A DNA stretch of 64,000 nucleotides, from assembly GCF_963676685.1 (NCBI RefSeq), contig NC_092347.1:70514935-70578934 (forward strand), written 5' to 3'. The translations under genes were made by a program, and so were the position numbers. Position 1 is the first letter of the stretch. Each line of letters begins with the position of its first letter. This document shows positions 1-58,312 of the stretch, piece after piece. This DNA comes from Mytilus edulis (taxonomy: Eukaryota). Below the pieces are notes generated by a model. It had not been told where the DNA came from. It did not search any database and worked only from the letters and a program-made list of their open reading frames with translations.

Positions 1-149
1 CGAAAAAAATATTCCCTGATCCCGTAAGGATCCATCCCAAAATCCCGAGCTTTAAAACACCCGATCCCGGTAAGTAAGTCATGCATCCATCAACTCTCTA
101 CCCTATTTTCATTTTAGCCAAATCACTACTTTCACTTTCAACAATAAAT

Positions 150-8938: not shown

Positions 8939-9099
8939 GATGAAGAACCTAAAGATCAGGAACAAGGAGTCGAATCAAGGTTTGCAGAAATGACAGACAA
9001 TGAAATTGATACACTTATTGAAGATGCTGAGAACAAAAACACAAAGAAAGCCACAAAATGGGCAGTTAATGTCTATGAAGAAAAGAACACTTGCAACTA
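8939..9099 (+). CDS. Exon 2: acceptor ttattttag|GAT, in phase with exon 1; reads ...FAEMTDNEIDTLIEDAENKNTKKATKWAVNVYEEKNTCN*
   Basis: Acceptor at 8937-8938 and continuous frame with exon 1. The NTKKATKWAVNVYEE motif resembles, from memory, the N-terminal motif of Crypton-type tyrosine recombinases or DUF3504 (KIAA1958/ZMYM-like). Confidence 0.4.
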
Positions 9100-9419
9100 G
9101 ATTGTACCAAGCAGGAGTCAGTGAGCAGATGGTAATGGATAGAACAGGTCACAGGAGTGAAAAGGCTGTTCGTACCTACAAAAGACCTGCGGATTCTATG
9201 CTAAAAGATGTCTCTAACATTTTGAATCCATCTAATAAGCAAATAAAACTTGAGGATCCCAAACCATTAACCGATACTCGTGCAATCCTTCCTGAGCAAG
9301 TTAACATTGAAAATACAGAAAATGCATTTAATGTTTCAAAACCAGAAGGAAAATATCGGGGATTGCCAAGTAACAGCTCTTTTCAAAACTGCGTGTTCAA
9401 TTTTGTAACGAAGATGTGA
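9075..9419 (+). pseudogene. +1-shifted continuation carrying a tyrosine-recombinase box-II-like segment (KKRTLATRLYQAGVSEQMVMDRTGHRSEKAVRTYKR)
   Basis: Pattern xRxTLATRLyQAGV...TGHrS...rtY matches integrase-family box II (LRHTFATRLLQAGV....LGHS......Y). It lies in a different frame from exon 2 and directly abuts the N-terminal motif, so the usual about 250 aa between them is missing. Confidence 0.45.
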
Positions 9420-12870: not shown

Positions 12871-15800
12871 ATGCTAGAAGTTTTAAAACCACCCAATTAG
12901 GACATGTTGTTTATAGTCTTTATATGGCTAACGATGTGTGCATCTAACCACTTGACCAGTTGACAACTTGCATATATATTTGATTGCACATTTATTATCA
13001 AGTTCGACTGAATTTTATTTAATTGCTTTTTAATCATGTCAGATTTGAAAGAAATACATGTGAAGTATATGTAACAAATCCTTTTGATTCAAAACAGAAT
13101 GTTAAAAGACATGTAAAGGAACGTGATGATCAATAAGTTGGTAAGCTTTAATTAGTTGGAAAAAAAGTTATAAAATATAATAAAATGTATAATAATGTAC
13201 AATAAATTTGTCAAATTTGATACTCATTCACTCATTGTGAAAGGCATGCATATAATCATTCGGCCAAAAATAATGAAATCAAAAGTATGATTGAATATTT
13301 TTATAATAAAATTATGTGTACATGTGTTAATGACAGTGCTAGTGGGATGTGTATCACCAGAACAATAGTCAGAACTTCTGTGTTGGTGCCATGCTTTAGG
13401 GGCATAAAAAGTTACATTAGTCCGTCAGTCCCGAACGTCATTAAAAACTGGTTCCGCTCTCCTAACTTTAGTTTGCCTCAACCATATACTACAAAACTTA
13501 TACACAATATATAAATGAAGCTGGTGCATGTGTGCCAATGAGAACTCTCCACAAGAGACTAAATGACACATAAATTAACAATTATACAATGTAGCCTAGG
13601 TCACCACACGGTCTTCAACAATTAGCAAGGTTCATACCGCAGTCAGCTATTAAAGGCACCGACATGACAATGTAAAACAATTCAAACGAGAAAACAAACG
13701 GTCTAATTTATGTACAAATAATAAACGAAAAATAAGATAGGCACGTGCATATAAAATAAGGCGAGGTTAAACATGTTAGCGGGATCCAAACCTCCCCCCC
13801 CCCTTATTTGGCATGAGTGCCAATAAGAACTCTACACAAAAGACCAAATGACACAAACACTAACACCTATAGGTCATATACAGCTTTCAACAATGAGCAA
13901 AGTCAATACCGCATATAGTCAGCAATAAAAGGCACTGAAATGACATTGTAAAACAATATTCAAACGAGAAAATAAACGAACAAATTTATGTACAAAAAAT
14001 GAACGAAAAACAAGTATGTAGCACATAAAAAACGACATTCATTGAATTACAGGCTCCTGACTTACCACAGGCACATACATAACGAATAAGGCGGGGTTGA
14101 ACATGTAAGGGGGATCCCTACCTCAACACAAAATCAAATTTGAAATTTTTAAGTGTCACTTTTACTGTTCAAGAGTTATCATGTCCCTTTAAAAACATAA
14201 GAAGTGTTGACTCTTTCGTTTCCTTTCTCTTAAATAAGTCTGACTCAATCAAATGTTAGGAACCTTATACGCGATTCACATTACCCCATAACACAGATCT
14301 ATTAAGTTCGATATTGGGTCCCGATGGCCTCACTGTTCATGAGTTTTTAGATGTAAAAAGTTGTGGTACGAGTACCAATGATAAAAATGTCAACCCGGAG
14401 CCTTAAGATAGGAAAACTGCTAAATCTATTGTTTCCGTTCTTTAACTTTAATTTGCTTCAACCAATTGCTTTGAAACTTATTGACAATGCTTATGGTCAC
14501 AAAACGGTCAAATAAAGGCGAATCCTGCATCTATATGTGGAAGTTTACTAATTTTTTTCACCAGCAGGGGCATCTGTGGTAAATGGACATATTCTACATT
14601 TAATTCAGTAATCAGCTTATTTACTTCCATTGAATTCTTCTTTTAATAGACTTAACTTGCACATATTTTTTTTCAGGATCTCGGTGCACTTTGGTAACAG
14701 ACAGTGATATTTCAAGTTAAATGTGATCAACTTAACAAAGTGTTTCACTAAATTGAGCTCTCTGTCTAAGTGTACTTTAAAGGTTTTTAGCATTGAGTTC
14801 AGTTTATTGATATGCGTATACCTTCTGGGTGAATTTTTATGATGTAAAAGCAGACTATCCATACCTACATGTCCATGAAATGAAATCTAAGGTAAAATGA
14901 ATGAAACCTTTTTGCATTATTTATCACAACTGGCAGCACACGATGCTACTGAAGCAGAAAATTTGCTTACTTGATATTCTCGAAAATTAAACGATTTAGT
15001 TTCCTCTTAACCAAACATTCTTAAAAATTGAGAATGGGAATGTGGAACTGTGTAAAAGATACAGTTACCATGTCAAAAGAGCAGAAAGCAGTCAACGGCC
15101 TCTAATGGGTCCTCATAGCTGACTATGCGGTATGGGCTTTGCTCATTGTTGAAGGCCGTACGGTACGGTGACCTATAGTTGTTAATGTCTGTGTCATTTT
15201 GGTCTTTTGTGGATAGTTGTCTCATAGGCAATCATACCACATCTTCTTTTTAATATCTTCAACAAAGCGCGAGAAAATCCCTCGCCCAGAGGCGGGCTTC
15301 AGATGGCCCTTAACAAAATGTGTACCAGTTCAAACTCCAAATCATAAAATAAACTTACAATTAAAAACATACAAGACTAACAAAAACCAGAGACTCCTGA
15401 CTTGACGTCAAGGTAATCTAAACGGTAGGATTAGACATTAAAACACTAAAAACTAGGGTTAACCATTAATTTTTTACCCAACCATATGATAGTACTATGG
15501 TAAACTTATAGAAACACATGATACAGTCATAAACTTATTGAATATTTGCAATAGTACGTCCAGAACAATACAAGACCGAGTTGTAAACAAATGAAAGTAA
15601 TGATACATACGAATTTTTAATCCCAATGCACAAATAAGGAACCGTAGTTTTCATTCAATTTATTTATCTAAAATGTACACTTGGGTTAAACAATGGCAAT
15701 TAACACTGTATATTTATATAAACGATCAATCTTGTAAATAAATAAAGGAGATATTAAGTCTACTGTATGTTTTTAAGCTTGTTTGATTTTTGGGATTTTC

Positions 15801-16264: not shown

Positions 16265-16891
16265 TTAATGTCGGAAGTGTTTTGGCATATTGACCTTTGA
16301 TAACTCTTGAAGATTAGGTGCCGACTGAGTTTTTCGAAGATATTTTATAAGTTTTTGCAGCTTTCTTCCACATTCAGAGGCCGCCAATACATGTGAGCAT
16401 ATGCTTAAAAGTTTGAAATTTTCACAATTGCAAGTGCCCTTCCCGCTTTCTAAAAGACGTACAAAATGTGGATCTTTTCCAGAGGTACTAGCAACCATAA
16501 ACCCGTTTTGGACACCAGGCGCTTTATTTACCAAACCAGAATTAACAAGCGACTCTGCTTTTTTCCAAATCGGCTCATGAATTGTGGGATCAAGATGAGT
16601 ATCTTCTAGTGAAATATATAAACTTTTATGATGTGGTTGTGGGTAAAGAGATGTTCCTGAAGTTCCAGGCTGTTCACCAACGGAAATAGGTATTGATGAC
16701 CTAAATTGCGACGGTTTAAGTGGAGCCTTTAGGAAGGCTGTTATATGCTTGCTGCGGGACGACTCGGAAAGTTTAAACCAAGCATGACTTGGCTGCACGT
16801 GTTCTATGTACTCGGTACGGATCTGATAGGGTCCCATACCAATAATTGCCTTCTCTGTGTCCTTTTTCTGCTCGTCAGCAAGTTCTCGCAT
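16265..16891 (-). CDS. C-terminal fragment with SWIM zinc finger
   Basis: GKGTCNCENFKLLSICSHVLAASE = C-x-C-x10-C-x-H. Confidence 0.5.
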   Translation of the reverse strand: MRELADEQKKDTEKAIIGMGPYQIRTEYIEHVQPSHAWFKLSESSRSKHITAFLKAPLKPSQFRSSIPISVGEQPGTSGTSLYPQPHHKSLYISLEDTHLDPTIHEPIWKKAESLVNSGLVNKAPGVQNGFMVASTSGKDPHFVRLLESGKGTCNCENFKLLSICSHVLAASECGRKLQKLIKYLRKTQSAPNLQELSKVNMPKHFRH

Positions 16892-17039
16892 TTTGGTGCA
16901 GAATACGGTAACTTCGTTTTCTTGGTATAATCCGTCTTTTGTTTTAATCTGTTATTCAAACTTTCGTTCGCATTTGTTGTGTAATGCGAAAAACCGAAAC
17001 CACAACTAATTCTTAATGGAAGTAATAAGCAGTTTTGCA

Positions 17040-17810
17040 CTAGTTTTTTTTATACTTCAAAAACCATGTATAAAACGCTGGCTCCGTCGTTTTTCTCGGT
17101 TCACATTCTCTCAAGTTCCAAATTGGCTTCAATTCCAACAATTTATTTTCGAAGTCAGTGTCAGTTAAATAATCTGCAAGTCCAACGTTTTTATCAAAAA
17201 TATCTTTAACGAACTGGTTTGTATATGGATTATTTATCCCTAATGTATGCAACTTTCTCTCAAGATTTAATCGCACATGACGCTGGCACTGCATATTTTT
17301 GGAAATTGGCATGTACCTACTAAAGCTGTTAAAAATCGAACATTCATCATCTGTTCCTATAAAGAGTGTGTCAGCTAAAGTGTTTCGGAGGGACACAATC
17401 GAAGAGGCAAAGAAATCAAACTTAAAGGCTCTTTCCGTTTTGGTTTGATGAATAAGCACTGGTCCCAAAAACGTGGGACATTCACCTGTTCTGCGATGAA
17501 TTAGCTTTAAATTCTTGTACACAATGGGCGTTACTACGAATTCGCCGAGGTTAAAAGTTGGGTCTATTCCCATAATTGTACACTCTGAGGGATTAGTAAG
17601 AAACATATCCATTTCCATAAGTTGCAAATCTGATGAACAAATACAGCAGAATTCAGGTGCACATTGTACTACTCTAATGTACGGATCTGCAAGTGATTGT
17701 TGGTCCTTGCATGCTTTTATCAGCTGAAACATACTGTCCCTATCCTTTCCGGCAACTGTGCTTTTCTGTGTTTGCTTTACATTGTAAATCTGTTTAGTGT
17801 TTCTCGGCAA
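17040..17810 (-). CDS. MULE transposase core-domain fragment
   Basis: 256-aa ORF with a DxTF...GP.liH...E.F.FF pattern. Confidence 0.45.
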   Translation of the reverse strand: MPRNTKQIYNVKQTQKSTVAGKDRDSMFQLIKACKDQQSLADPYIRVVQCAPEFCCICSSDLQLMEMDMFLTNPSECTIMGIDPTFNLGEFVVTPIVYKNLKLIHRRTGECPTFLGPVLIHQTKTERAFKFDFFASSIVSLRNTLADTLFIGTDDECSIFNSFSRYMPISKNMQCQRHVRLNLERKLHTLGINNPYTNQFVKDIFDKNVGLADYLTDTDFENKLLELKPIWNLRECEPRKTTEPAFYTWFLKYKKN

Positions 17811-17865
17811 TTCGGCAATTCTAAAGGGCTACTGACATGCTTCATACCACCTGCATCTTCAAAAA

Positions 17866-18459
17866 TCACATCGAAAGTTCTTTTGCGCGTTTCCCAGCGT
17901 CAAGATGTTCACCTATATCAGCCAGTACTCGCTTACTTGTACGTACGTACCGCGTGTTTCCCGTCTTTGTGTTACCATGTACATTCGTGAATATAGGAAC
18001 ATTTCCTTCGACTACATACTGTAAAATTGCAAATTTAGTTGGTTTTCCAGCACTGTCATGCAGTTCATACAATCTTCTCTTAAAACCTTTAGTGTTCTTA
18101 CACATCCAATATGTTCTTGTTAGTCTGTAGACAGAATTTCTCATTACTGAAGGTTTTTTCTTTAATACACTTATATTAGATATTTCTCCATCAGAGATAT
18201 GTACAGAGACAAAATAACGCTGGACTCTATTGTTTTTCATGGCCCCTGCCATATGAATCCGTAGGTCGTCTCGATCTTTCAAAGCTAAAGTGTCAATGAC
18301 AAATGTTGACGTCTCAATGCAATCAACTGGTACTGAGGACACATAATCTTCTTTGTCTCCTTTTAGTATAAGTTTACAAGCCACTTTCAAGGTTAGCTGT
18401 TTAGCAAATTGCTCCATGTCTTCCTTTTCCCTAAAACGTGCAATAACTATATAAGTCAT
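17866..18459 (-). CDS. MULE-like protein, N-terminal fragment
   Basis: ORF of 197 aa, in frame 0 relative to the other two. Confidence 0.4.
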   Translation of the reverse strand: MTYIVIARFREKEDMEQFAKQLTLKVACKLILKGDKEDYVSSVPVDCIETSTFVIDTLALKDRDDLRIHMAGAMKNNRVQRYFVSVHISDGEISNISVLKKKPSVMRNSVYRLTRTYWMCKNTKGFKRRLYELHDSAGKPTKFAILQYVVEGNVPIFTNVHGNTKTGNTRYVRTSKRVLADIGEHLDAGKRAKELSM

Positions 18460-21400
18460 GATGAAGCATAAAAACCTACATAAGTTTAACTTTATATAGC
18501 TAAATCACTGCACAAAGCCAAAGCTAAAGAATGAACTACCGTATGACATTTTGAATGCTCTTGGTATCCTCAATAAAATGCATCTTTATAAAGATCTAAT
18601 TGGTCTTCGTATGACGAGTTAAGCCCATTTACAACAGATATTTATTTTTGATAGTTTTCTTTATGTTATACTGTTATAACACTGTCCCAAATCAGAATCA
18701 TGTATTTAGTGGTTGTCGTTTGTTTTGAATGTCATATTTGTTTTTCGTTTTAATTCACAAATCAAGGAGTTATTATTTTTCGTTTCGTTTACTTTACATT
18801 CGTTATTTCGGGGTCTTTTATAGATTATTATGCGGTAAGGGTTTTGCACGTTGTTAAAGGTCAAACACTATCCTATATATGTTATATGTTATTTTGTCGC
18901 TGGTGGAGGATGGTCTCAATAGCAAACATATCATATTTTCTTTTTTAACTTTCAGTAATATGTTGATGGTATCGCAAACTTATTTCGAAGTTGAGCCTAT
19001 TTTATTGATTTTGTTCATGTGCGTCTACCCAATAACACTATTAGATTCAGCTAATGGAGGTCTGGCCTAAGCCAATATAACATCGGGCAAGAATGTGCCA
19101 AAAATATCGCAAGTGTTCGCAGATTGTACATGGGTAGCTGTCAAATTTGGATCTTTGTTCTCGTAGAGTTTAAATACAGTATAATTTATGAAATTGCTAG
19201 TGGAAAAATGTATGTTTTGTTTTAAAGATTGTTACTGTTTTACCTAGATAAAAAGGGGTAGCCAAAAGCTCGAAATTTTGTTTTCGATTCTAGTTCCAAC
19301 ATAAATACGTTTCCTTTTTTTTTTTAATTCTTACAAAATTTTCTTAATTTTTTCATATGCGACCTAGCCTGCAGTTTCTGTTCGAGCTCTCGATTTAACA
19401 GATTTGACCTAGATTATACTTCTTCCCATAGAGAAGGGCTCGAAAGGAGATGGCCCTCGGGAGTTTGGAATTTTTAGATAATTTGCGATGCATTTTCAAT
19501 AGATAGGATTCACGTCAATATTTTAGCAATAATATAAATGTCGACTTGTTAGGTTGATGTCGTGCTGTTTTTAAATGTAAACTATATTCTGCATATATTT
19601 TTTTAAAGTAATGAATCGCTGCTATCATTGCTGAGATCAGTGCTGCTAGATATATTGATCACTGGTTGGGGATTTTTTTCGACAGAATCATCATCACTGT
19701 TACTTTTTTCCATTGCACAAACATTAATAGGATCAGTAATAATGTCCAATGACGGTAAAAAAGAGGAATCAGAATCAATGTATGTACGGTTGCTTGAATA
19801 TTCAGTTTCATGCTTTTTTCCCTCCGAATCTGTCGAAATCAGAATTAAATCTGAATCTGCACAAATAAGCCCTCTCTCTCTCTTTCATCCCCAGACCCGA
19901 ATGATGAAGATGTTTCCACGGTTTCCTGGTCTCCCCTTAAATAAAATGTATATTAGAGTTTCTACATGCATAATTCAGTTCTTTTTTCGCCAACCTTATA
20001 GAACTAGAGGAAGACTAAATAGTATACTGCACCGACTAAATGGTCGATAAAAAAAACTGACCATTACTTGTTACCGAAGTAATAAAACAACAATTGTAGT
20101 TAATGGCAAGAAAAGAGAAAACATTTTTAAAACAAATTCCTATTTGATTACTGATTTTAAATGAGGGAAATGCCAGTATTGGCTCTTACTGTGTTCCATG
20201 CCTCTTTAAGGGATTTACACATGAAAGAAAATGCTGACGGTCGGCACTTAAAGTTAACCACTCATGAGTGCTGAGACCTATACATGCAGCATAAAGCATT
20301 TATCATCCATTTCAAGTGATTTTGACGTCATTGTATCATGCAGTTTGGTTTCCATGGCAACAAAAAATGATTTTTTATTTCGTCAAAAATGGCATTAAGA
20401 AAGCGGCTTGTGGTGTTGTATTACATAGTTACGTATGTCCTTCATCCCATCCATCCTTAACCACCTCCCATTGACCCCGGATCATGCTTTTGGTTTGAAT
20501 ATAACAGAAAGATGAGGTTTTATTACCTATTAAACAACTCTCGACAAACGACTAAATGACACAGAAATTAACAACTGTAGGTTAACCTTCAACAATGAGC
20601 GAAGCCTATACCTCAAAGTCAGCTATGAAAATGACCCGAAATGACAAATGTAAAACAATTCAAACGAGAAAACTAACGGCAAAATTTGAACGAAAAACAA
20701 ATGTGTAACACATTGACAAACGGCATTCATTCAAATACTAGTACAGGCTCCTGGGACAGGCACATACATACAAAATGTGTCGTGGTTAAACATGTAGGCG
20801 GGATCCCAACAACCCCCTAATCTTGGACAGAATGGTAACATAACAGATCATAATAACATAAGACCGAACTATAAAAATCAGTTGAAAAAGGCTTATTCCA
20901 TCAGCTCATTAAGGATGTACACCTCAGAAAAGCCATAAATTTTCTTGAATTAAACATTTTCTTAACCTGGAATTTTGACAAAAAAGACTGACTTGATTAG
21001 TAAAAAATGAAAAAATTATTACTCCATAACTACGTTTTTTCAGAGATCTTTCTTTTGGGATATTTTCCACAAATTTGACAGTATTCCAGATAAGTTTGAC
21101 GCAAAAATTAAGAAATGAAACCCGTAAAATTTATAATCATTGCGTATCGAACACACTGAAAAAGTCCTGGTACTGCAATGAAGTTTATGTCGTTGAATTC
21201 TTGTTTGTTTGTTTCCAAGTATGCAAATGAGTATTGTATTTCTTTGTGCATCATATTTACCTGTTTCAATTGAAAATTTTATCCGCGCTTAGTATTTATC
21301 TCTCTGTGACGTAAAAAAACCAAGGTAAGGATGTTAGCTCTGGTTCCATTAAATTAGTGACGATTATTAAAGGCTTTGACAAATTGTGTACTTTCAAATC

Positions 21401-22614
21401 GGTGTATGAAAAAAAATATCATAACTGAAAGGGTTATTGAGTTTGGATTGATTGCTTTTGAATTTCTTTCCCTCAATGATATGCTTAGAGAAAGATGAAC
21501 CGAGGAAGATGTTATATTACCTAAATTGAAAATGTTTAATAAACAGAAAATGCGTTTCTCTTTCCAATCTTTTACTCCCCCAACCCCACAAGTTTCATTT
21601 TATCTACTGTATTAATTTTTAAGACACGTCCATCTAAATGAAGTCTGGTTGATCTCCAGCTACCTCCCCCCTCCCCAACCCTGTTTTGAAACAAACTTAA
21701 ACATGATCCCCATTAAATTCTCTATAAAAGATATAGGAATAGACTGATATTTAAAAAGTCGTTATAAATTCCATTGAATTTAAAACTAATCAAAATCAGA
21801 TTCATGTTATTCGGATATTTTTAGATACATTTTTTTTTTGGCAGAAATTACCAAAAATTGTTTTAACTTTTTTTCTTACTTTAAAACACTGATTTAAGAT
21901 TTACATTGTACACAAAATATGATGAAATATGTTATGTCCCAGCTTAGATAAAAAAAAAAAAAAAAAAAAGGAATGAGAGACCTCTCTTTTTTCCTATTTT
22001 GAAACTACGATGTTCGTACAAAGTTCAACTTTGTCTTTATTTTAAAGCAGATGGCAGATTCGGTGTTTGGGGCGAATAGGTCGTTCACCCTTGGATTGGA
22101 CAAAGTATCGTGTTTTAGCATAAAATCGTCAATATTGTTTTAGTCTCGCTACATGTACTCGGTTATATTTTTTTTTTTAATTTTCATGATAGAATAACGC
22201 CCCGTTCCAGGAACCGCCACTAAAGGTAAAAATAGATTTGAACTGTGCAGTATATCTGAGGTAGTTAATGCACACCTTTGCTGTGCATTATCCACATTAT
22301 AGCACAGTAAGAACAAAGAGATTTTACCCATGTCATGTGTTAATGTATGTTTATATGCCCTCACTCTATTTCATTTATATTTACACATTTAAGCATGCCT
22401 CTGTAGAAACTTGGCAAATTCTTCTTCCCACATGATTTTGCTTGACGAGTAGATACAATATGAGCCCAAAAAGAAACCCCACTTTGTTTTTAAATGCTTC
22501 ACGCTACACTGACCTGACTTCAAACGGATTAACTGTTAACATTGATCAATACGTCAATCAAGTCTCATATCTACGGTGGCAGAATGCGGCCATGAAAGAA
22601 AAAAAAATTATGTT

Positions 22615-23160
22615 GTTCCCTCAAGATACTATGTCGTTCCCTCAAGATGCTATGTCGTTCCCACAAGATAGTTATCTCGTTCCCTCAAGATACTATGTCA
22701 TTCCCTCAATATAGTTATCTCGTTCCCTCAAGATACTATGTCGTTCCCTCAAGATAGTTATCTCGTTTTCTCAAGATAATTATCTCGTTCCCTCAAGCTA
22801 CTATGTTGTTCCCTCAAGATGTTATGTTGTTCCCTCAAGATTTTATGTCGTTCCCTCAAGATGATATGTCGTTCCCAAAAGATAGTTATCTCGTTCCCTC
22901 AAGATACTATGTCGTTCCCTCAAGATAGTTATCTCGTTCCCTCAAGATAATTATCTCGTTCCCTCAAGATACTATGTCGTTCCCTCAAGATGTTATGTTG
23001 TTCCCTCAAGATACTATGTCGTTCCCTCAAGATGATATGTCGTTCCCACAAGATAGTTATCTCGTTCCCTCAAGATACTATGTCGTTCCCTCAAGATAGT
23101 TATGTCGTTCCCTCAAGATATCATGTCGTTCCCTCAAGATAGTTATCTCGTTCCCTCAAC
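22615..23160 (+). repeat. Tandem array of about 25 units of 21-22 bp (left arm)
   Basis: Repeating gttccctcaagatactatgtc / gttccctcaagatagttatctc. Confidence 0.85.
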
Positions 23161-24411
23161 ATAGCAATACAATTATATTGATTTATTCTTTATTTCCAAC
23201 TTCGAAACGGTGGAGTAAAGACGTGGAGTTACTTTCAATTCACTTTTTTTTTATCAAATGCGGAACAATGCAAGAACTAGAAATTAAGAGCACCGACACG
23301 AAACACGGAAAATAAATAAGGGGAAATACGAAGCACGCACATCGAACCAAACACGAGAAAACGAGAAAGAAAACACCAAATCACGAAAACACGTAAAATG
23401 AAAAGGCCGAAAACGTTGCACGAAAATAACCCTTTACCACCCTCTTAGAAAATAAAATTAAAAATGAGCTACAAAATGTTTTATCATCTCTTATTCCTGG
23501 ATTTCTAATACATTAACCTTACTGTTTGTGTTGTACATGTGCATATGTATGTAATCAGTATCTTCCTTAGATTTAATTTTTAAATGTTAAAAGGGTGGAA
23601 AATAATTCCTTTTCTGTGTATCCATGGCAACATTCCGCATTTATTTACCATAAAATATTGCAAAAAGGGGGTAAACATGCATGTCACATATCCCCCCAAA
23701 ATTTGGATCAAACTAGAATTTCAATGCCTTTGAGTGATACCTTTTTAGACACTGTTTTCATAAATCTTCCTAATGATCAAATAAAAATTGGATGTCTTTC
23801 GCCTAATTTTTTCGTAAAATCTAATCACAAAGTTCGTGCGACAAAAAGTTGGAAAAAAACATTACAAAAATTGCCGGACCAATGTATGGTATGGACAAAC
23901 AAATACGGACTGTCATACAGAAAACAGCCTATATTACATACATCATATGATCTTGATGTTCATATAAACCCAATACGAAGGCTATTTTAATACTCAGCTA
24001 TCCAAAAATGAATTTTATTGCACACTAGCTCTTATATTTGAAAAATCCTCAGGGGCCAAAATGCGAAACTACACATCCAACTGTGGAGTGCTACCTTTAC
24101 TGGGACTCCGGGATCGGGTGTTTTTAAGCTCAGGATTTCGGGATTGACCCTTTCGGATCCGGGAATTCTTTTTTTCGGATTACGGAACGTCGGGATTTAC
24201 TTTATTTAAATTCGTGATTTCGAGATTTCGTGTTTTTAAGCCCGGGATTTCTGGATCAGGACCCCTCCTATCCCCTCTCATTTATTCTCTTTAAATACAG
24301 AATTATTATATCATTATTATTATTATGCAAATATTCTACTTTTGGGATCTGGCCACGTCTACAGTTCCGCTTCGAAGGGCGAAATGAATAATATATCAAT
24401 ACAATTTTAAA

Positions 24412-24772
24412 ATCTTGAGGGAACGAGATAATTATCTTGAGGGAACAACATAGTATCTTGAGGGAACGACATATCATCTTGAGGGAACAACATAACATCT
24501 TGAGGGAACGACATAGTATCTTGAGGGAACGAGATAACTATCTTGATGGAACAACATAACATCTTGAGGGAACGACATAGCATCTTGAGGGAACGAGATA
24601 ACTATCTTGAGGGAACAACATTACATCTTGAGGGAACGACATAGAGTCTTGAGGGAACGAGATAACTATCTTGAGGGAACGACATAGTATCTTGAGGGAA
24701 CGAGATAACTATCTTGTGGGAACGACATAGCATCTTGAGGGAACGACATAGTATCTTGAGGGAACAACATAT
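24412..24772 (-). repeat. Same tandem array in inverted orientation (right arm)
   Basis: Repeating atcttgagggaacgacatagt / atcttgagggaacgagataactatcttgagggaac. Confidence 0.85.
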
Positions 24773-26399
24773 TTTTTTTTTCTTTCATGGCCGCATTCTG
24801 CCACCGTACATATCTGTTGCAATAATCTTCATCAAAAGATTTTAAGAATTGTTGATGACAAAATAAATTGATTTACTGTAAAGTTCAAAACTTCAAACAA
24901 TGACGATTATGACTGCGTAGTACGGTAGATCTGGTGGGATTTTTTTCTTCAGAAAAACATCATAAGGGGGGCTAAAAAAAATGGGCCAACTATTTGATTT
25001 TCACGGTAAGGGGCAGGAATATTAAAAAATAATTATTACTTTGACCTGGTAAGAACTAAAAAAAAAATGACTTGGCATGAAGATGAGACAAAAATAAATT
25101 GAACTATCATGTTAAAATTTATAAGTTATAGTTACTCTGATTTTTATTTTTGAAAAAGTTTCCAAGTGATAGATGCTAATTGTTCATTCAGTGCTTCTGT
25201 TTTTTAAAGGTCATTTTCTGCAAGGGCTGTTTGTAGTGGAAGTATTTTTTTTTCAAAGCTGCAAGTTATGTATTTCCAAAACAGGTGCTACTTTCTGTAT
25301 TATCTGCTATCATATTTTCGACATATTTGTTGTGTGCTTTTGTTATATTGAACGACAAATTTATGTGACGTATATAATTTTTCTGACGTCAGACACTCAA
25401 ATCAATCCATGTGTTCGTAGATAGTAGATGTTTTTGTGTCCTGTTAAGTTGTTATACGATGATGACTGATGTACCCATATTTTGACTATTTTATTAATTG
25501 TGACTGTTTATTTAACGCATCATGTAAATGTAGCGGAATTTGATGAGACTGTTATTAAAGTGAGACTGAGGGTTAGCGCTATAGAACCAGGTTTAATCCA
25601 CCATTTTCTACATTTGAAAATGCCTGTACCAAGTCAGGAATATGACAGTTCTTGTCCATTCGTTTTTGATGCGTTTTGTTTTTTGATTTTGCCATGCGAT
25701 TATGGACTTTTCAAATTGATTTTCCTCTGAGTTCAGTATTTTTGTGATTTTACTTTTTGTTATATCACTCTCTATTGATTTCGCCAGTTCTCATCATATT
25801 CCCCCCTGATATTCCACCAAAAACCGCTTCTTTCCGTTTCCGTTTCCGTTCCGCATTCCGTTTCCGCCGTTTAGCAACACCCCTTTCCCATTCTCAATTT
25901 GTAACAAAAAAATCAGCACTCAGCAACGGATGTTAAGTCCTCAATGCTCTTAAACATAGTAAATTATTTGGTCTGCTTAATTTTTTGGCTTCGAGAATCA
26001 CTGACGAGTCTTTTGTGGACAAAACGCTCGTCTGGCTTTCAAAATTATAAGACTGATGTCTTTGTTGACGTTGCAGGTGCGCTTGACTCCAATCTTAATT
26101 AAATAAGATAGTCAAGTTTTCAGACCGAAGGTTGGCGATTCTCTCCGACACTCCGTCTTCCTCCACAAATAAAACTGACGACCATGAAATAGCACAACTG
26201 TGCTGAAAGAAGCATTAAACACCAATCAATCAATCATAGAAATGATAATACTATTATTTTTTTATTCATAATTTTTATAAGAAGAAGAAGCTTCATTTCT
26301 TTATTGAATATTTCATTAAAGAGACTTCGTAGGTTCTGGTTTCTAAGACAAATAAAAAATTCTTTCAATCATCATTCACAGTTTGTCTCAGGTTGAACT

Positions 26400-27886: not shown

Positions 27887-28115
27887 TCAAGAAAAAACAT
27901 ACATACATTGACAAAGAAATAGACTGGTTTCCGTCGCTGCTCTATTATCCCAATCAAAGCCTTTAGTGTAAACAAGTTTAACACGTTGGTTTATAGCATA
28001 TGATGTAGGTTCTCCATAAATCCATGCAGCTTCCGTTAGATCTGTTCCATCATTCCATTTGAATGAAATTCCATCTGCTGACGTCAGTCCAATCCAGAAA
28101 TCGTTATTAACATCC
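27887..28115 (-). CDS. C-type lectin gene L1, terminal exon encoding the C-terminal half of the lectin domain
   Basis: Acceptor tgttacag|G. Frame gives (M)DVNNDFWIGLTSADGISFKWNDGTDLTEAAWIYGEPTSYAINQRVKLVYTKGFDWDNRAATETSLFLCQCMYVFS* with WIGL...W.DG....W..GEP...W.D..C motifs. The phase (2+1) matches the upstream exon. Confidence 0.6.
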
Positions 28116-28850
28116 CTGTAACATATATAGAAATCGTTATTATTGTCCCTGTAACATATTTAGAAATCGTTATTATTGTCCCTGTAACATTTTTTGAAAT
28201 CGTTATTATTGTTCCTGTAATATATTTAGAAATTGTGAGTATTGTCCCTGTAACATGTTTAGAAATCGTGATTATTGTCCCTGCAACATATTTATAAATC
28301 GTTATTATTGTCCCTTTAACATTTTTAGAAATCGTTATTATTGTCCCTGCAACATATTTAGAAATCGTTATTATTGTCCCTGTAACATACTTAGAAATCG
28401 TTATTATTGTCCCTGTAACATACTTAGAAATCATTAGTAATGTCCCTGTCAAATATTTAGAAATCGTTATTATTGTCCCTGCAACATATTTAGAAATCGT
28501 TAGTATTGTCCCCTGTAACATATTTAAAAATCGTTGCTTTTGTCCCTGCAACATATTTAGAAATTTTTATTATTGTCCCTGTAACATATTTACAAAATCG
28601 TTACTATTGTCCTTGTAACATATTCAGAATCGTTATTATTGTCCCTGTAACATATTTAGAAATCGTTAAAATTGTCCTTGTAACATATTTAGAAAACGTT
28701 ATTATTTTCCCTGTAACATATTCAGAAATCGTTATTATTGTCCCTGTAAAATATTTAGAAATCGTTATTATTGTTCCTGAAACATGTTTAGAAATCATTA
28801 TTATTGTTCCTGTAACATATTTTCAAAGACCATTTCAACTGGCAAGAACT
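28116..28850 (-). repeat. 33-bp satellite of about 22 units inside the L1 intron; the unit resembles the 3' splice site plus exon start
   Basis: Minus-strand unit GGACAATAATAACGATTTCTAAATATGTTACAG repeated. The true junction reads tgttacag|GGATGTTAATAACGATTTCTGG. Confidence 0.8.
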
Positions 28851-32559: not shown

Positions 32560-34560
32560 AAACATAAACTTTTAGCCACCGCTTTACAAGCAGAGCCAAA
32601 TACAATGAAAGTCTTAACTATGTATTGGCTTCCGAAGCTACACAAAACCCCTTACAAATATAGATTTATTTCGTCTTCAAGCCATTGTTCAACTACTAAA
32701 TTGTCTATTCTTCTTACCAGCACACTTGGTACAATTAAAAACCTGATAATAAATTGTTCAAATAAGGCCTTCGAAAATAGTGGAATAAATTACTTTTGGA
32801 GTGTCAAGAACTCGTTGGAAGTACTTGATAAATTGCATGCTTATATTGGTGATTTTGAATCAGTTCAAAGTTTTGATTTTTCTACCCTGTATACCACATT
32901 GCCTCATATTCTCATTAAGAAAAAATTCACACACCTAATTAAATGGGCATTCAAAAAAATCAGAATGTGAATATATATGTTCAAACTCTTTTAGGTCATT
33001 TCTTAGTAGCAATAAACAAAAAAAACTATGTTAATTGGACATGCTTTGATACTATATATGCCCTTGAATTTTTACTAGATAACATTTTTGTTCGCTTTGG
33101 GGATTCCGTATATCGTCAGATTATCGGAATTCCAATGGGGACTAACTGTGCACCACTTATTGCGGACCTGTTTTTGTATTGTTATGAGTTACAATTTATG
33201 ACAAAAATAAGCAAAGACCCATCGAAACAACATCTGATAAACAAATTTAATAATACTTTTAGATATTTGGATGATATTTTGGCTCTCAATAATGACGACT
33301 TCAGTATGTATATTAATGAAATTTATCCTGTTGAACTTACTTTAAATAAAGCTAATACTAACAATGACCACTGCCCTTTTCTCGATCTTGATATCTATAT
33401 CACTAATGGAAAGCTGAATACTAAAATTTATGATAAAAGGGATGATTTTTCATTTCCTATCGTTAATTATCCGTTTTTAGATGGTGACGTTCCCTTGTCA
33501 CCATCTTACGGTGTTTATATATCTCAACTTGTACGATTCGCTCGTGTATGTAACAATGTTTTAGATTTTAACGAGAGAAATTTATGTATTACTGAAAAAT
33601 TATTACACCAGGGTTTTCGATATCACAAACTAGTCAAAACATTTACTAAATTTTATCATCGGTATAAATACATCATTCGTAATTATAGCTCAACATGCAG
33701 ACTTCTAATACGTTCAGGTATTTCACATCCAATTTTTTTATGGAAATATTCTTTATAAAGCACAAAGGTGTCAGTATTCACCTCAGAAACTTACAAAACC
33801 TTTGAATAGACTTATTAAGAAGGGATATAATTACGATACTGTTGTCAAGTCATTAAAGATTGCATATTTTGGCGTTAATATTGACTCACTGATAAGGTCT
33901 TTGCATCGGAACTAAACACATTTATTCTAAAAACAGTTGTTGGCATGACACGGGTTATGTTCTTCTCATATATGTTATGATGGTATGATACTAAACCCCT
34001 AACGGGAAGGATTGTGCCTGATGTTCATATGATGAAATCATAATCTTTCAGTCAGTTTAATTGAAGTCTGGAGCTGGCATGTCAGTTAACTGCTAGTAGT
34101 CTGTTGTTATTTATGTATTATTGTCATTTTGTTTATTTTCTTTGGTTACATCTTCTGACATCAGACTCGGACTTCTCTTGAACTGAATTTTAATGTGCGT
34201 ATTGTTATGCGTTTACTTTTCTACATTTGTTAGAGGTATAGGGGGAGGGTTGAGATCTCACAAACATGTTTAACACGCCGCATTTATGCGCCTGTCCCAA
34301 GTCAGGAGCCTCTGGCCTTTGTTAGTCTTGTATTATTTTAATTTTAGTTTCTTGTGTACAATTTGGAAATTAGTATGGCGTTCATTATCACTGGACTAGT
34401 ATATATTTGTTTAGGGGCCAGCTGAAGGACGCCTCCGGGTGCGGGAATTTCTCGCTACATTGAAGACCTGTTGGTGACCCTCTGCTGTTGTTTTTTTATT
34501 TGGTCGGGTTGTTGTCTCTTTGACACATTTCCCATTTCCATTCTCAATTTTATTATCAAT
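32560..34560 (+). mobile_element. Penelope-like retroelement (RT ORF with one frameshift, plus an about 700-bp tail), sitting in the L3 intron
   Basis: ORFs 32605-32970 and 32943-33758: MYWLPKLHK (PLE-type PKxHK motif), FDFSTLYTTLPH, GIPMGTNCAPLIADLFL and FRYLDDIL (YxDD). The tail 33810-34560 recurs at 10280-10960. Confidence 0.55.
32605..33758 (+). CDS. Reverse transcriptase (Penelope-like), frameshifted around 32950
   Basis: RT motifs as above; two overlapping frames. Confidence 0.55.
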
Positions 34561-38576: not shown

Positions 38577-39113
38577 GTGTTCATACAGGAACTTCTTAGG
38601 AAGAAAGATAAGAAGTTAGCAATATCCTTTAACTCTACTTTCCGCTATATAGATGATGTTCTTTCGCTAAATAATTCAAAATTTGGTGACTTTGTCGAAC
38701 GCATCTATCCCATTGAACTAGAGATAAAGGATACAACAGATACAGTTAAGTCGGCCTCATACCTTGACTTACATCTAGAAATTGACAATGAGGATCGATT
38801 GAAAACAAAACTTTACGACAAAAGAGAAGATTTCAGCTTTCCAATTGTGAACTTTCCATTTCTAAGTAGCAACATTCCAGCAGCATACGGTGAATATATC
38901 TCCCAATTGATACGATATTCCCGTGCGTGCATTTCCTATCACGAATTTCTTGATGGAGGGTTGTTGCTCACAAGGAATCTAATAAATCAAGAGTTCCAAA
39001 CGGTGAAGTTGGAATCAACTCTTCGTAAATTTTACGGACGCAATCACGAGTTATTTGACTGTTATGGAATAACCGTTTCACAAATGATATCGGATATGTT
39101 CCTAACATCGTAA
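38577..39113 (+). mobile_element. Penelope-like RT, C-terminal fragment (second family member)
   Basis: FRYIDDVLSLNN...LYDKREDFSFPIVNFPFL...YISQLIRYSRAC is colinear with 33250-33560 (FRYLDDILALNN...IYDKRDDFSFPIVNYPFL...YISQLVRFARVC). Confidence 0.55.
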
Positions 39114-40535: not shown

Positions 40536-41700
40536 AAAAGAATCACAGATCTGAGTCTGTGTACTTTATTATGTAAAATGTTATTGCGAACCCTATCTTA
40601 GTTTTCCATAGATTCACCTGCAAGTTACCTGTCCATTTAAACTTTTGTAAGTCCTATTGTCCCATCTAACAAATACAACAGGTATTGTTCTCTGTGTAGT
40701 TTATTCACTGGGACCTTTAAATTTCTTCTAGGAGAAATATATCACTCATTGATTAATTTACCTGACCAAAAAATTATCTTCTTTTTTATTGAAATACTTC
40801 TAATAACTCACATAAACTGTATGCAATATTGTATTTATTCAATATTATCATTAATATATTTTCAATCTGTTCAATATAAAATCTGGTTTAATACTAAAAA
40901 GTTTATTTCAGACACATTTTTTAGTATTTTCCAATGAATTTACATGTTTTTGTTGTTGTTCATTTATAGACTTATGTTTATGAAGACCTTAATTTAAAAA
41001 TAATAATATTCAATTTTTATGCCCCATCTACGATAGTAGAGGGGCATTATGTTTTCTGGTCTGTGCGTCCGTTCGTTCGTCCGTCCGTCCGTCCGTCCGT
41101 CTGTCCCGCCTCAGGTTAAAGTTTTTGGTCAAGGTAGTTTTTGATGAAGTTGAAGTCCAATCGACTTGGTACACATGTTCCCTGTGATATGATCTTTCTA
41201 ATTTTAATGCCAAATTAGAGATTTTACTCCAATTTCACGGTCCAATGAACATAGAAAATGATAGTGCGAGTGGGGCATTCGTGTACTGAGGACACATTCT
41301 TGTTTATTTATCAAACACACAAAAATATTGAATATTTGATCAGAAATCAACTTTTAATTTTTGAATCAGTATTTCAAATGTAATATTGAACACATTAAAA
41401 ACGAGTTACTCCAGGTATCGAATAAATACAACACCACATGCAGTTTTGTGAGTCCTTACTTAGTATTGGTATAAGTATTTTTTCTTCATTGACAGTTCAA
41501 TTTTTTACTCAGGTAGATTAATCAATGTGTGATATATTTCTCCTAGAAGAAATTTAAAGGTCTGAATGAATAAACTACACAGAGAACAATACCTGTTGTA
41601 TTTGTTAGATGGGACAATAGAACTGCCAAAAGTTTAAATGGACAGGTAACTTGCAGGTGAATCTATGGAAAACTACGATAGGGTTCGCAATAATTGGTAG
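40510..41700. repeat. About 1.2-kb imperfect palindrome with a MITE-A copy at its centre
   Basis: 40510-40770 is the reverse complement of 41510-41700 (e.g. ...cctgcaagttacctgtccatttaaacttttg... / ...caaaagtttaaatggacaggtaacttgcagg...). Weaker inverted similarity continues toward the centre (40800-41020 against 41300-41500). Confidence 0.6.
41022..41305 (-). repeat. MITE family A, copy 3
   Basis: atgccccatctacgatagtagaggggcattatgttttctggtctgtgcgtccgttcgttcgtccgtccgtcc... Confidence 0.7.
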
Positions 41701-42667: not shown

Positions 42668-42950
42668 GTGTCCCCAGTACATGCATGCCCCATCAGCACT
42701 CGTGATCATTTTCTATGTTCAGTGGACCGTGAAAACGGGCGAAAATCTCTAATTTAGCATTACAATTAGAAAGATCATATCATAGGGAACATGTGTACTA
42801 AGTTTCAAGTTGATTGGACTTCAACTTCATCAAACATTTCCTCGACCAAAAACTTAAACTTGAAGCTGGACAGACGGACAAACGGACGAACGAATGAACA
42901 AACGAACGCACTGACCAGAAAACATAATGCCCATAAATGGGGCATAAAAA
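42668..42950 (+). repeat. MITE family A, copy 4; forms an inverted pair with copy 3 about 1.36 kb away
   Basis: gtgtccccagtacatgcatgccccatcagcactcgtgatcattttctatgttcagtggaccgtg...cataatgcccataaatggggcat. Confidence 0.7.
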
Positions 42951-56184: not shown

Positions 56185-56736
56185 CTGCAACATCAAAAAT
56201 TAAATACATTGTATACATAAATCAAAGAATTATAATGTCTACATACTGAACACATATTGGCTAAACAATTGATTCAAACCAGACACAATTTTATCCACTG
56301 TTAGCTGGTTTATTATTTTTTTTCACTGTAAAAATTCAGTGAGGTATTATATTATATGTCTATATAAGCATTGATGTGCACTGACCTGCATTCACAGTAT
56401 TGAAACCAAAAGTAGGTCTTGTTCTGGCTTAACTTTAATTAATGCAAATTCAGCTCAACTCTTACACTATTTAAATTCATGCTGATAGTGTTCATAAACA
56501 ACAAGAAAAATAATAAAATATAAAATTTTATGACGCCATATTTGACCAAATTGAAATTGTTGATGAATAACAGGAATCTCTACTGCTAAAGGCTAGTCCA
56601 GATCCACATTAAGATAAGCAGAGGATGTCAATGCCACCAAGATCTTGTTGTAATAATAACATAATGATAACTTTTTATATTGGAGAATGTTATGAATTTT
56701 AATGACTAAAACATAACAGCCTTCATGTAAACTTAC

Positions 56737-56919
56737 AGAACAGTCTGCGATGTCTTTATACATCCCTGATTTCTGTGTTACTTTGGATGTTTCTAAATCC
56801 TTCACCTGATAGAGTCCAAGGTAGAATTCTGGATCATATATATCCTGGACCATACATCTAAATCTCACTAAAGAGTTTGGTTTCAGTGTATGTAGTGGAG
56901 TATCATTTAAACTTGGTAC
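56737..56919 (-). CDS. MCMBP: MCMBP exon (N-terminal conserved region)
   Basis: tatatttgcag|GTACCAAG...GACTGTTCT|GTAAGTTTAC, giving [61 protein letters not shown]. As I recall it, human MCMBP has [38 protein letters not shown]. Confidence 0.65.
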
Positions 56920-58312
56920 CTGCAAATATAGAAAACTTCTTTTAAACAAAAGTTCTGCTTTCTAAGAAGGTATTAGGCCAGAATTTTTTTATTATCTGTT
57001 TAACGAGATCCGCCGACTCCACCTTTCCCGATTTTAGAATAAAAATAAAAGTAGTGCTTCTTACTTTTATTATTATTTTCCCGCCGACTGTTACGAAATC
57101 CACAGAAAAAAATAAAATGTGTTGTTCACGATACTCGCTTTCAGTCAATTTCGTTATCCGTAATATTTAATTTTTACCAAGTCAATGAAACAGCAATTTT
57201 CATTTAAAAGTAAAGAAATTCAAGGCATAAACGATATATTTTCTTCTAAAAGATTTTTAAGCTGGTGGCATGCTTTTCATACTTGTTACACGAGAGCGTA
57301 CATCAAATCATTCTAACTTTCGGCAAAATCAGTTATTACTTCATCAGAACTTGATGAAATTAGCCTAAAGTAAACTTGTCATCCATGTACAGTACATTCC
57401 GGTTATTTGCATAGCCTATTTGTCAGACGAAATTATGCAATAAAGCGGAGTATGCTTATATCCGAAATGCCAAATTACGGAGTCAAATAACATCGATAGT
57501 GCAGATCAACAAAGAAGGAAGATGAACGCCCATAGTCCACTTACAACATATTGAATGCTTATTTATTCTAATAAAAGTTATTTGTCTAGTGTCATACATT
57601 TTATTTCATTGTGTATTCTTTCAATAAAGATTATAAACACATTTTGTTTAGTTTATTTATGTACCGATTTTTCCTTTACCTGAGATACGAAAATAAAATT
57701 GTTCTAAAAATAGATTTGTTTCTATGACCCAGATGTACAAATTACATTGTTACACCTTGTTTAAAATAAACTGTTTAACAATACTACACAGTTAATAATC
57801 ATTGTAAACAATAATTGTGCAATGAACTGCCTTTGATATTCAGTATTTACCGATTACACAGTGATGTGACACTGTTACTTTAACACCGCTAGTTTCGTTT
57901 ATGCAAAGCAGTTCACAGGTGATGGGGCCATGCACGGGTTATCCGCTGGACACGAGTGTTGAAAGTGAGAAATATATAATAATCAGAAGTTAATTTTCTT
58001 TTAAAAAATATTAAAAAGAAAAGATTAATGTATAAAATTCTTCAACCATATATAAAAGCCCTGTAATATTTAACATAAATGTAGATCACCCAAGCTGAAT
58101 TACGAGATTACACATTGGATAATGATCGATAATTAGCAGGCGTTAATGTTTTAAAAATTCACCCAAAATGGAATCTATGAACAATGTTTGAAATCCAATC
58201 AATAATTAACACCTTTTGAGATAGAAGATCATAGAATGGTTGTGTTTTTACAACAATCAGCTGATTGACATTTTTATGACCTCGAGGCTTAAAATAGAAT
58301 ATGGGAAACTTT

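Follow-up and report, generated by a model that had tools for sequence, protein, structure and literature searches.

A foldback-like transposon with TA…TA termini and arms of 21/22-bp subrepeats in Mytilus edulis, and its probable relation to the IS3EU/GingerRoot superfamily

Two arrays of the same short tandem repeat face each other in opposite orientation within a 64,000-nucleotide stretch of Mytilus edulis DNA (NCBI RefSeq assembly GCF_963676685.1, contig NC_092347.1, positions 70,514,935 to 70,578,934 of the forward strand; the whole stretch is hereafter called the window), and the locus raises the question of whether these arrays are the arms of a mobile element and, if so, which type of transposase moved it. 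An original prediction, made from the sequence alone, had described a Foldback-type transposable element with a 7-bp target-site duplication (TSD). We found that the locus holds a genuine foldback-like, non-autonomous transposon with terminal inverted repeats (TIRs). It is probably a class II cut-and-paste element of foldback architecture that depends on an IS3EU/GingerRoot-type transposase supplied in trans.

Architecture, arms and relatives of the element

The element occupies positions 22572-24808 (2,237 bp), with TA…TA ends and a perfect 36-nt TIR (Table 1), and its terminal 19-mer ACGGTGGCAGAATGCGGCC occurs in the 64-kb window solely at 22573 (+) and 24807 (-) when 3 mismatches are allowed (0.00 expected). 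Arms of ~590 bp (left) and ~400 bp (right) are built from 21/22-bp units, and the outermost inverted repeat measures 189 nt at 97%. The original prediction had named opposed 21-22-bp arrays as arms and perfect terminal inverted repeats outside them, and both features were recovered, with Tandem Repeats Finder (TRF) placing the arrays at 22607-23163 and 24412-24771. Its span of 22573-24808 was correct at the right end and had to be moved at the left, where T22572 lies within the inverted repeat. Folded as single-stranded DNA, the whole element reached -552 kcal/mol versus -209±7 in 10 shuffles, with 384 inter-arm pairs and with base 1 (T22572) paired to base 2237 (A24808), so that a single strand can snap back into one long hairpin; single units and termini showed no self-structure (z about 0). 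Long inverted arms of short tandem subrepeats (26 + 17 units) thus enclose a middle domain without a transposase gene, the sole sizeable open reading frame (ORF) of the centre having no Pfam match, and the predicted modular foldback architecture, with tandem-subrepeat arms of unequal length and no transposase, is borne out. The element as a whole has no coding capacity.

Table 1 Features of the foldback-like element, in window coordinates.
Feature	Positions	Strand	Basis or remark
Left TSD copy CATATC	22566..22571	.	Directly abuts the TA terminus; identical to 24809-24814
Left terminal non-repeated TIR segment, TACGGTGGCAGAATGCGGCCATGAAAG + A9 + TT	22572..22609	+	36 nt perfectly complementary to the right end
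Left arm, 26 tandem 21/22-bp units	22610..23163	+	TRF, core positions, unit analysis
Left inner inverted-repeat segment, non-tandem	23168..23226	+	77% complementary to 24353-24409, z=13 versus shuffles
Purine-rich "ACGAAA" block	23236..23444	+	No second copy in the window or 25 loci
MITE-like dispersed repeat of ~650 bp, left terminus missing	23445..24096	+	85-94% identical to L003-L006, L008-L010
CGGGAT-rich dispersed repeat, joined to the MITE-like repeat	24098..24279	+	L007 junction + block, 91%
Right inner inverted-repeat segment	24353..24409	-	Partner of 23168-23226
Right arm, 17 tandem 21/22-bp units	24412..24771	-	TRF, core positions
Right terminal non-repeated TIR segment, T10 + CTTTCATGGCCGCATTCTGCCACCGTA	24772..24808	-	36 nt perfectly complementary to the left end
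Right TSD copy CATATC	24809..24814	.	Identical to 22566-22571
MITE: miniature inverted-repeat transposable element. L numbers denote loci in public DNA sequences.

The left array has a period of 21 with 26.0 copies and a higher-order period of 171 bp at 92%, and the right array, in opposite orientation, has 16.9 copies and a higher-order period of 64 bp at 89%. Both are organised around a 13-nt core, GTTCCCTCAAGAT, which with no more than 2 mismatches has 26 matches on the + strand (left arm) and 17 on the - strand (right arm); the whole window holds 44 matches, including one stray match outside the element, versus 1.3 expected by chance. Arm units are of two types, 21 bp (core + NNTATGTY) and 22 bp (core + ARTTATCTC), with at least 98% conservation at 12 of the 13 core positions and with variation concentrated in the first two or three bases of the spacer. 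Colinearity between the arms holds for the outermost five units, whereas further in the order and number of units diverge (26 versus 17). Because the inner units differ in this way and higher-order periods exist, the pattern indicates that the arms expanded and contracted independently by unequal exchange or slippage, a process described for Galileo (PMC3573991). Growth and shrinkage of this kind would account for the higher-order periods of 171 and 64 bp and for the difference in arm length.

JGI (Joint Genome Institute) metagenome contigs were scanned for two adjacent cores (26 fixed bases), and 15 loci (L011-L025) were recovered where essentially none are expected by chance. The same pattern had no match in bacterial or archaeal genomes and none in viral contigs, as expected for a eukaryotic element, and the exact 26-nt TIR had no match in the metagenome contigs. 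In the literature, the core and the termini sought as literal strings led to no relevant paper. Core arrays recur in at least three other element families; the related loci comprise family A (L012-L014, L016-L019, L021, L022, L024), family B (L011/L015, L023, L025) and L020. L011 and L015 were rejected as independent copies, having the same flank in opposite orientation, and L022 and L024 are one locus assembled in two different metagenomes. The family-A terminus, TACGGAAGCCCAGGGGTGACATGCTAGAAATA-T(n), was seen at 8 independent flanks, and L011/L015 and L025 carry the family-B terminus, TACGGTGGCACAGAGGTGACATGTAG…. In its first 10 nt the window terminus, TACGGTGGCAGAATGCGGCCATGAAAG-A9, agrees with family B (identical at the L011 termini); it has TACGGTGGCA in common with that family, and the layout of TACGG, then CATG, then a homopolymer A/T run, then arrays is common to the window and families A and B. 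Like the window element, these relatives have the 13-nt core in 21/22-bp arrays and TACGG termini; unlike it, they are ~300-450 bp long where complete and have few units, other spacers, different TIRs beyond the first 5-10 nt and a different host GC content. Family A is also built differently inside, with cores of both orientations interleaved into nested local palindromes around a central imperfect palindrome of ~80 bp (…CATTCAATATGGTGGACTATCTAAAGATAGTCC…), an organisation taken from L017:2337-2802 and from L012-L014, L016, L018, L019, L021 and L022/L024.

Homologous termini and core arrays at unrelated flanks in metagenome contigs agree with the prediction of a transposable element with a TSD. 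They also bear on whether the locus could be a non-mobile, locus-specific inverted duplication of a minisatellite, as might be supposed from the single copy within the 64-kb window and from the lack of an empty-site paralogue inside it. Such a duplication would not be expected to have homologues at many unrelated flanks elsewhere or to end sharply in TA…TA between perfect 6-bp direct repeats, and this reading is effectively refuted.

Exact termini and the target-site duplication

A perfect 6-bp direct repeat, CATATC, stands immediately outside the two ends (Table 1), and by our own arithmetic the chance of a 6/6 flank match at the local base composition is ~5e-4. The flanks catatct (22566-22572) and acatatct (24808-24815) read as had been claimed, but the 7-bp TSD drawn from them has to be shortened. 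All 13 recovered termini (8 family-A flanks, one in L011, two in L025 and two in the window) part from their flanking sequence precisely at the initial T of TACGG, with the variants TACCG and TATGG in L025. Because similarity among the termini stops exactly at this T, T22572 and A24808, both of which lie inside the inverted repeat, belong to the element and set its boundaries; the seventh matching base is the first TIR base, conserved at every recovered terminus, and the TSD is therefore 6 bp and not 7. The expected empty site would have one CATATC (…AAGTCTCATATCTGTTGCAATAA… / …CAATCAAGTCTCATATCTGTTGCAATAATC…). The complete small relative L025, the sole other intact copy, has ATAACG on both sides, which is again a perfect 6-bp TSD.

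The length of the duplication bears on a possible Galileo-like origin within the P superfamily, which would entail a 7-bp TSD, since CATATCT is repeated at 22566-22572 and 24809-24815 and since 7-bp TSDs and long TIRs with internal repetition occur together in Galileo (PMC3573991, PMC3688188). This Drosophila element resembles the one in the window in that its long TIRs contain tandem repeats, present in unequal copy number in the two arms (PMC3688188, PMC3573991). It differs in its 7-bp TSDs, in a THAP-domain P-like transposase that it encodes or that is present in source copies, and in longer repeat units that occupy part of the TIR only. A 7-bp reading of the window would leave the ends asymmetric, with ACGG… at the left and …CCGTA at the right, the T kept at 13/13 termini belongs to the element, and L025 gives only 6/7 under a 7-bp rule, all of which makes membership of this group distinctly improbable.

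Since TA stands at every terminus, the TA could instead be taken as the duplication itself, with a TIR starting CGG…, as in a Tc1/mariner-type (Stowaway-like) insertion at TA; the MITE-like repeat nested in the centre appears to use TA in this way. However, each of the two intact copies has perfect 6-bp direct repeats adjoining the TA on its outer side, which duplication of TA alone would leave unexplained (joint chance of both ~1e-7, our own arithmetic), so that we regard this origin as very unlikely. A hAT-type element with an 8-bp TSD and one mismatch, TCATATCT / ACATATCT, has a 7/8 flank match in the window to recommend it, and the relatives carry an internal CAGRGGTG, 10 nt in from the terminus, which we take to be reminiscent of hAT ends. 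The mismatches nevertheless sit exactly at the edge, affecting one outer position in the window (7/8) and both in L025 (6/8), which is the pattern predicted by a 6-bp TSD with T…A element ends; the 10 nt outside CAGRGGTG are conserved among copies and thus part of the element, and no copy with a perfect 8-bp duplication was seen among those recovered. A hAT origin is accordingly highly improbable.

Superfamily assignment and the putative role of the core

TA…TA termini and a 6-bp TSD are together a hallmark of IS3EU/GingerRoot (PMC10045372, PMC6839031), with GingerRoot described as having 6-bp TSDs and mostly TA..TA termini (PMC10045372). The element has both: the window ends are TACGG…CCGTA, with the same start at the 13 recovered termini, and 6-bp TSDs flank the window copy (CATATC) and L025 (ATAACG), the degenerate L017 being uninformative. 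The signature fits this superfamily best, and since no transposase partner was found in the window or 25 loci, we infer the assignment from these two hallmarks. The GingerRoot paper uses the same criteria and lists homologues from Crassostrea gigas, corals and fish (PMC6839031), and the IS3EU-related tandem repeats CgiSat35 and CgiSat47 belong to the C. gigas satellitome (PMC8268682). IS3EU/GingerRoot elements resemble the window element in their TA…TA termini, 6-bp TSD, TIRs and occurrence in marine invertebrates including oyster (PMC10045372, PMC6839031). In contrast, GingerRoot TIRs are 100-150 bp long and are not described as arrays of short subrepeats (the term "tandem repeat" occurs 0 times in the GingerRoot paper, PMC6839031), and the window element has no integrase-like transposase linked to it.

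The original prediction had placed the element in the Foldback class, and the classical Foldback elements of the Mutator/Foldback superfamily, which an MuDR/FB4-type transposase would mobilise, share its architecture. Like the window element, Drosophila FB and Tetris have arms consisting almost wholly of short tandem subrepeats, arms of unequal length, a variable non-coding middle and mostly non-autonomous copies (PMC4079207), and most foldback elements are thought to be of Mutator type (PMC4079207). A cluster of ORFs with a SWIM-finger match lies 4 kb away (16265-18459) and is possibly a degraded transposase resembling those of Mutator-like elements (MULEs). However, the 6-bp TSD falls short of the 8-10 bp of FB-type Tetris (PMC4079207), and TCTCATATC and CATATCTGT, the 9-mers on either side, do not match; FB and Tetris also differ in their Mutator assignment, in having no TA…TA signature and in having no sequence similarity to the window element. 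The SWIM ORFs are without flanking copies of the element TIR, and the TA…TA termini are those of IS3EU/GingerRoot. We therefore consider a Mutator-type origin unlikely and match the element to IS3EU/GingerRoot instead. Rfam and tRNA scans of the whole window returned nothing, and because they were empty the element is not SINE-derived (short interspersed nuclear element) or tRNA-derived. Nor did the scans show a small-RNA target of the kind expected for Dada elements.

Several observations weigh against the assignment to IS3EU/GingerRoot or against the evidence on which it draws. Neither the window nor the 25 loci yielded an autonomous partner or a transposase of IS3EU type, and the arrays of L011-L025 adjoin no transposase, only host genes (a GT10 fucosyltransferase and a C1q domain). 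MuDR-type TSDs are reported at 4-10 bp (PMC10045372), so that TSD length alone does not exclude MuDR. A clean TSD comes from two intact copies only, the window and L025; in L025 the terminus is tandemly duplicated over 16 nt at the left end, so that its exact position is slightly ambiguous. L017, the third copy that is complete, shows no recognisable TSD, and its left TIR is degenerate. The 64-kb window contains one copy of the element, and the arm/TIR peptide had no match in the protein collection. Finally, the conservation of the core across families is partly built in, as the contig search demanded two exact cores; even so, its identity in families A, B and L020 amid unrelated spacers and diverged TIRs, in contigs of 36-45% GC versus 33% for the window, suggests constraint on the 13-mer.

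The core GTTCCCTCAAGAT is most likely a reiterated transposase-binding site, a putative role that we propose because the repetitive TIRs of Galileo carry mapped THAP sites, with multiple sites per TIR (PMC3688188). By analogy with these repeats and their multiple binding sites (PMC3688188), the mechanism suggested for the window element would begin with a transposase of the IS3EU/GingerRoot (integrase-like DDE) superfamily acting in trans, which would recognise the TACGG… end and cut the target with a 6-bp stagger. The reiterated cores, which we infer to be spaced about two helical turns apart, would serve as a battery of secondary binding sites for this transposase.

We propose more tentatively that the element and its metagenome relatives could be the first recognised foldback-type lineage of IS3EU/GingerRoot, with the core conserved across several marine-invertebrate hosts as a putative binding site of an integrase-like transposase. 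If this is true, foldback architecture would be a third independent invention, after Mutator and P, and would evolve convergently in integrase-like DNA transposons, with the 13-nt core as a candidate binding site. Foldback-like elements are sources of inversions and genome instability, and to our knowledge the origin of long repetitive TIRs and their aid to transposition are understood for Galileo only. Repeat libraries for bivalve-type genomes would gain from including the element and its relatives, together with the two repeats that sit in its centre, all of them unannotated repeat families.

The composite centre and the surrounding window

The centre had been predicted to be short and non-repeated, whereas 835 of the 1,248 bp between the arrays consist of other dispersed repeats, a truncated MITE-like element and a CGGGAT-rich repeat. 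The predicted acgaaa-rich, purine-skewed block and cgggat-rich block are present as claimed, without any Pfam match. Inverted symmetry extends ~60 bp inside the arrays (23168-23226 versus 24409-24353), and further inward only a 24-nt patch is significant, where 23370-23393 mirrors 24213-24236 (z=5.1). The ACGAAA and CGGGAT blocks were therefore rejected as a clean continuation of the arms, the symmetry being limited to this patch and the CGGGAT block being a separate dispersed repeat.

A 131-aa ORF at 23595-23990 has eight "homologues" at the DNA loci L003-L010, and it was rejected as a gene since it has no Pfam match and the "homologues" are frameshifted copies of the ~650-bp repeat. The copy in the window has sharp edges and keeps only the right terminus (24081-24096); other copies have the termini TA|AGGTAGCACTCCACAG…CTGTGGAGTGCTACCT|TA with apparent TA duplications, and none of L003-L010 has foldback arms. 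L007 (607-791) contains the identical junction of MITE-like and CGGGAT repeats plus the block, and the CGGGAT-rich repeat also stands alone at window positions 1-70 (minus strand, 86%). A 7-nt CCTTTAC repeat lies near both edges of this fragment of other repeats. The centre is probably dispensable and would have acquired the fragment from elsewhere, possibly in the repair of a break at the hairpin tip.

The two nested repeats have features of their own. The MITE-like repeat is ~650-690 bp long, and two copies lie 757 bp apart in L005; a left flank common to L005/L006/L008 and a right flank common to L005/L008/L009 suggest that it belongs to a larger unit, tandem or higher-order. Its annotation as "hypothetical proteins" (P0020-P0031) is the work of gene callers, and these repeat families explain such spurious "proteins" in metagenome gene catalogues. 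The L007 copy of the CGGGAT repeat is more regular than the window copy, which has many CG-to-TG/CA-type changes.

The window as a whole has 33% GC and a CpG observed/expected ratio of 0.72. On its minus strand, 56593-56949 is an exon of the host gene for the MCM-binding protein (Pfam MCM_bind, E=7e-24), and the public sequence nearest to this exon, 96% identical, is a contig of Logan run SRR29152237. The cluster at 16265-18459 (-) consists of three consecutive ORFs of 208, 256 and 197 aa and may be a degraded transposase-like gene, the last ORF having a weak SWIM zinc-finger match (E=0.0016, below the Pfam cut-off). A possible Crypton/DIRS-like remnant is the ORF at 9000-9419 (+), whose match to the C-terminus of Phage_integrase (tyrosine recombinase) is weak and lies below the cut-off (E=1.8e-4). 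Related ORFs at 32605-33758 (+) and 38577-39113 (+) look reverse-transcriptase-like by eye (F/YLDDIL…YDKRDDFSFPIVN), with no Pfam match at E<=0.01.

Other repeats of the window include a 33-bp tandem array at 28096-28822 (22 copies, 86% matches, TRF score 1079), which yields repetitive ORFs on both strands (…GTIITISKYV…). A second long inverted repeat, 40581-40775 / 41499-41693 (195 nt, 94%, 723 bp apart), is accompanied by another at 41042-41262 / 42705-42932; the 40581/41693 repeat was rejected as a relative of the element, having no TACGG, no 13-nt core and no obvious TSD. A short dispersed repeat (…CATTGTTGAAGGCCGTACGGTGACCTATAGTTGTTAATGTCTGTGTCATTT…GGCAATCATACCACATC…) occurs in both orientations at 13561-13915, 15113-15240 and 20554-20628, and at ~15.1-15.25 kb it contains a 17-nt run identical to a Mytilus coruscus microsatellite primer (PMC3431879).

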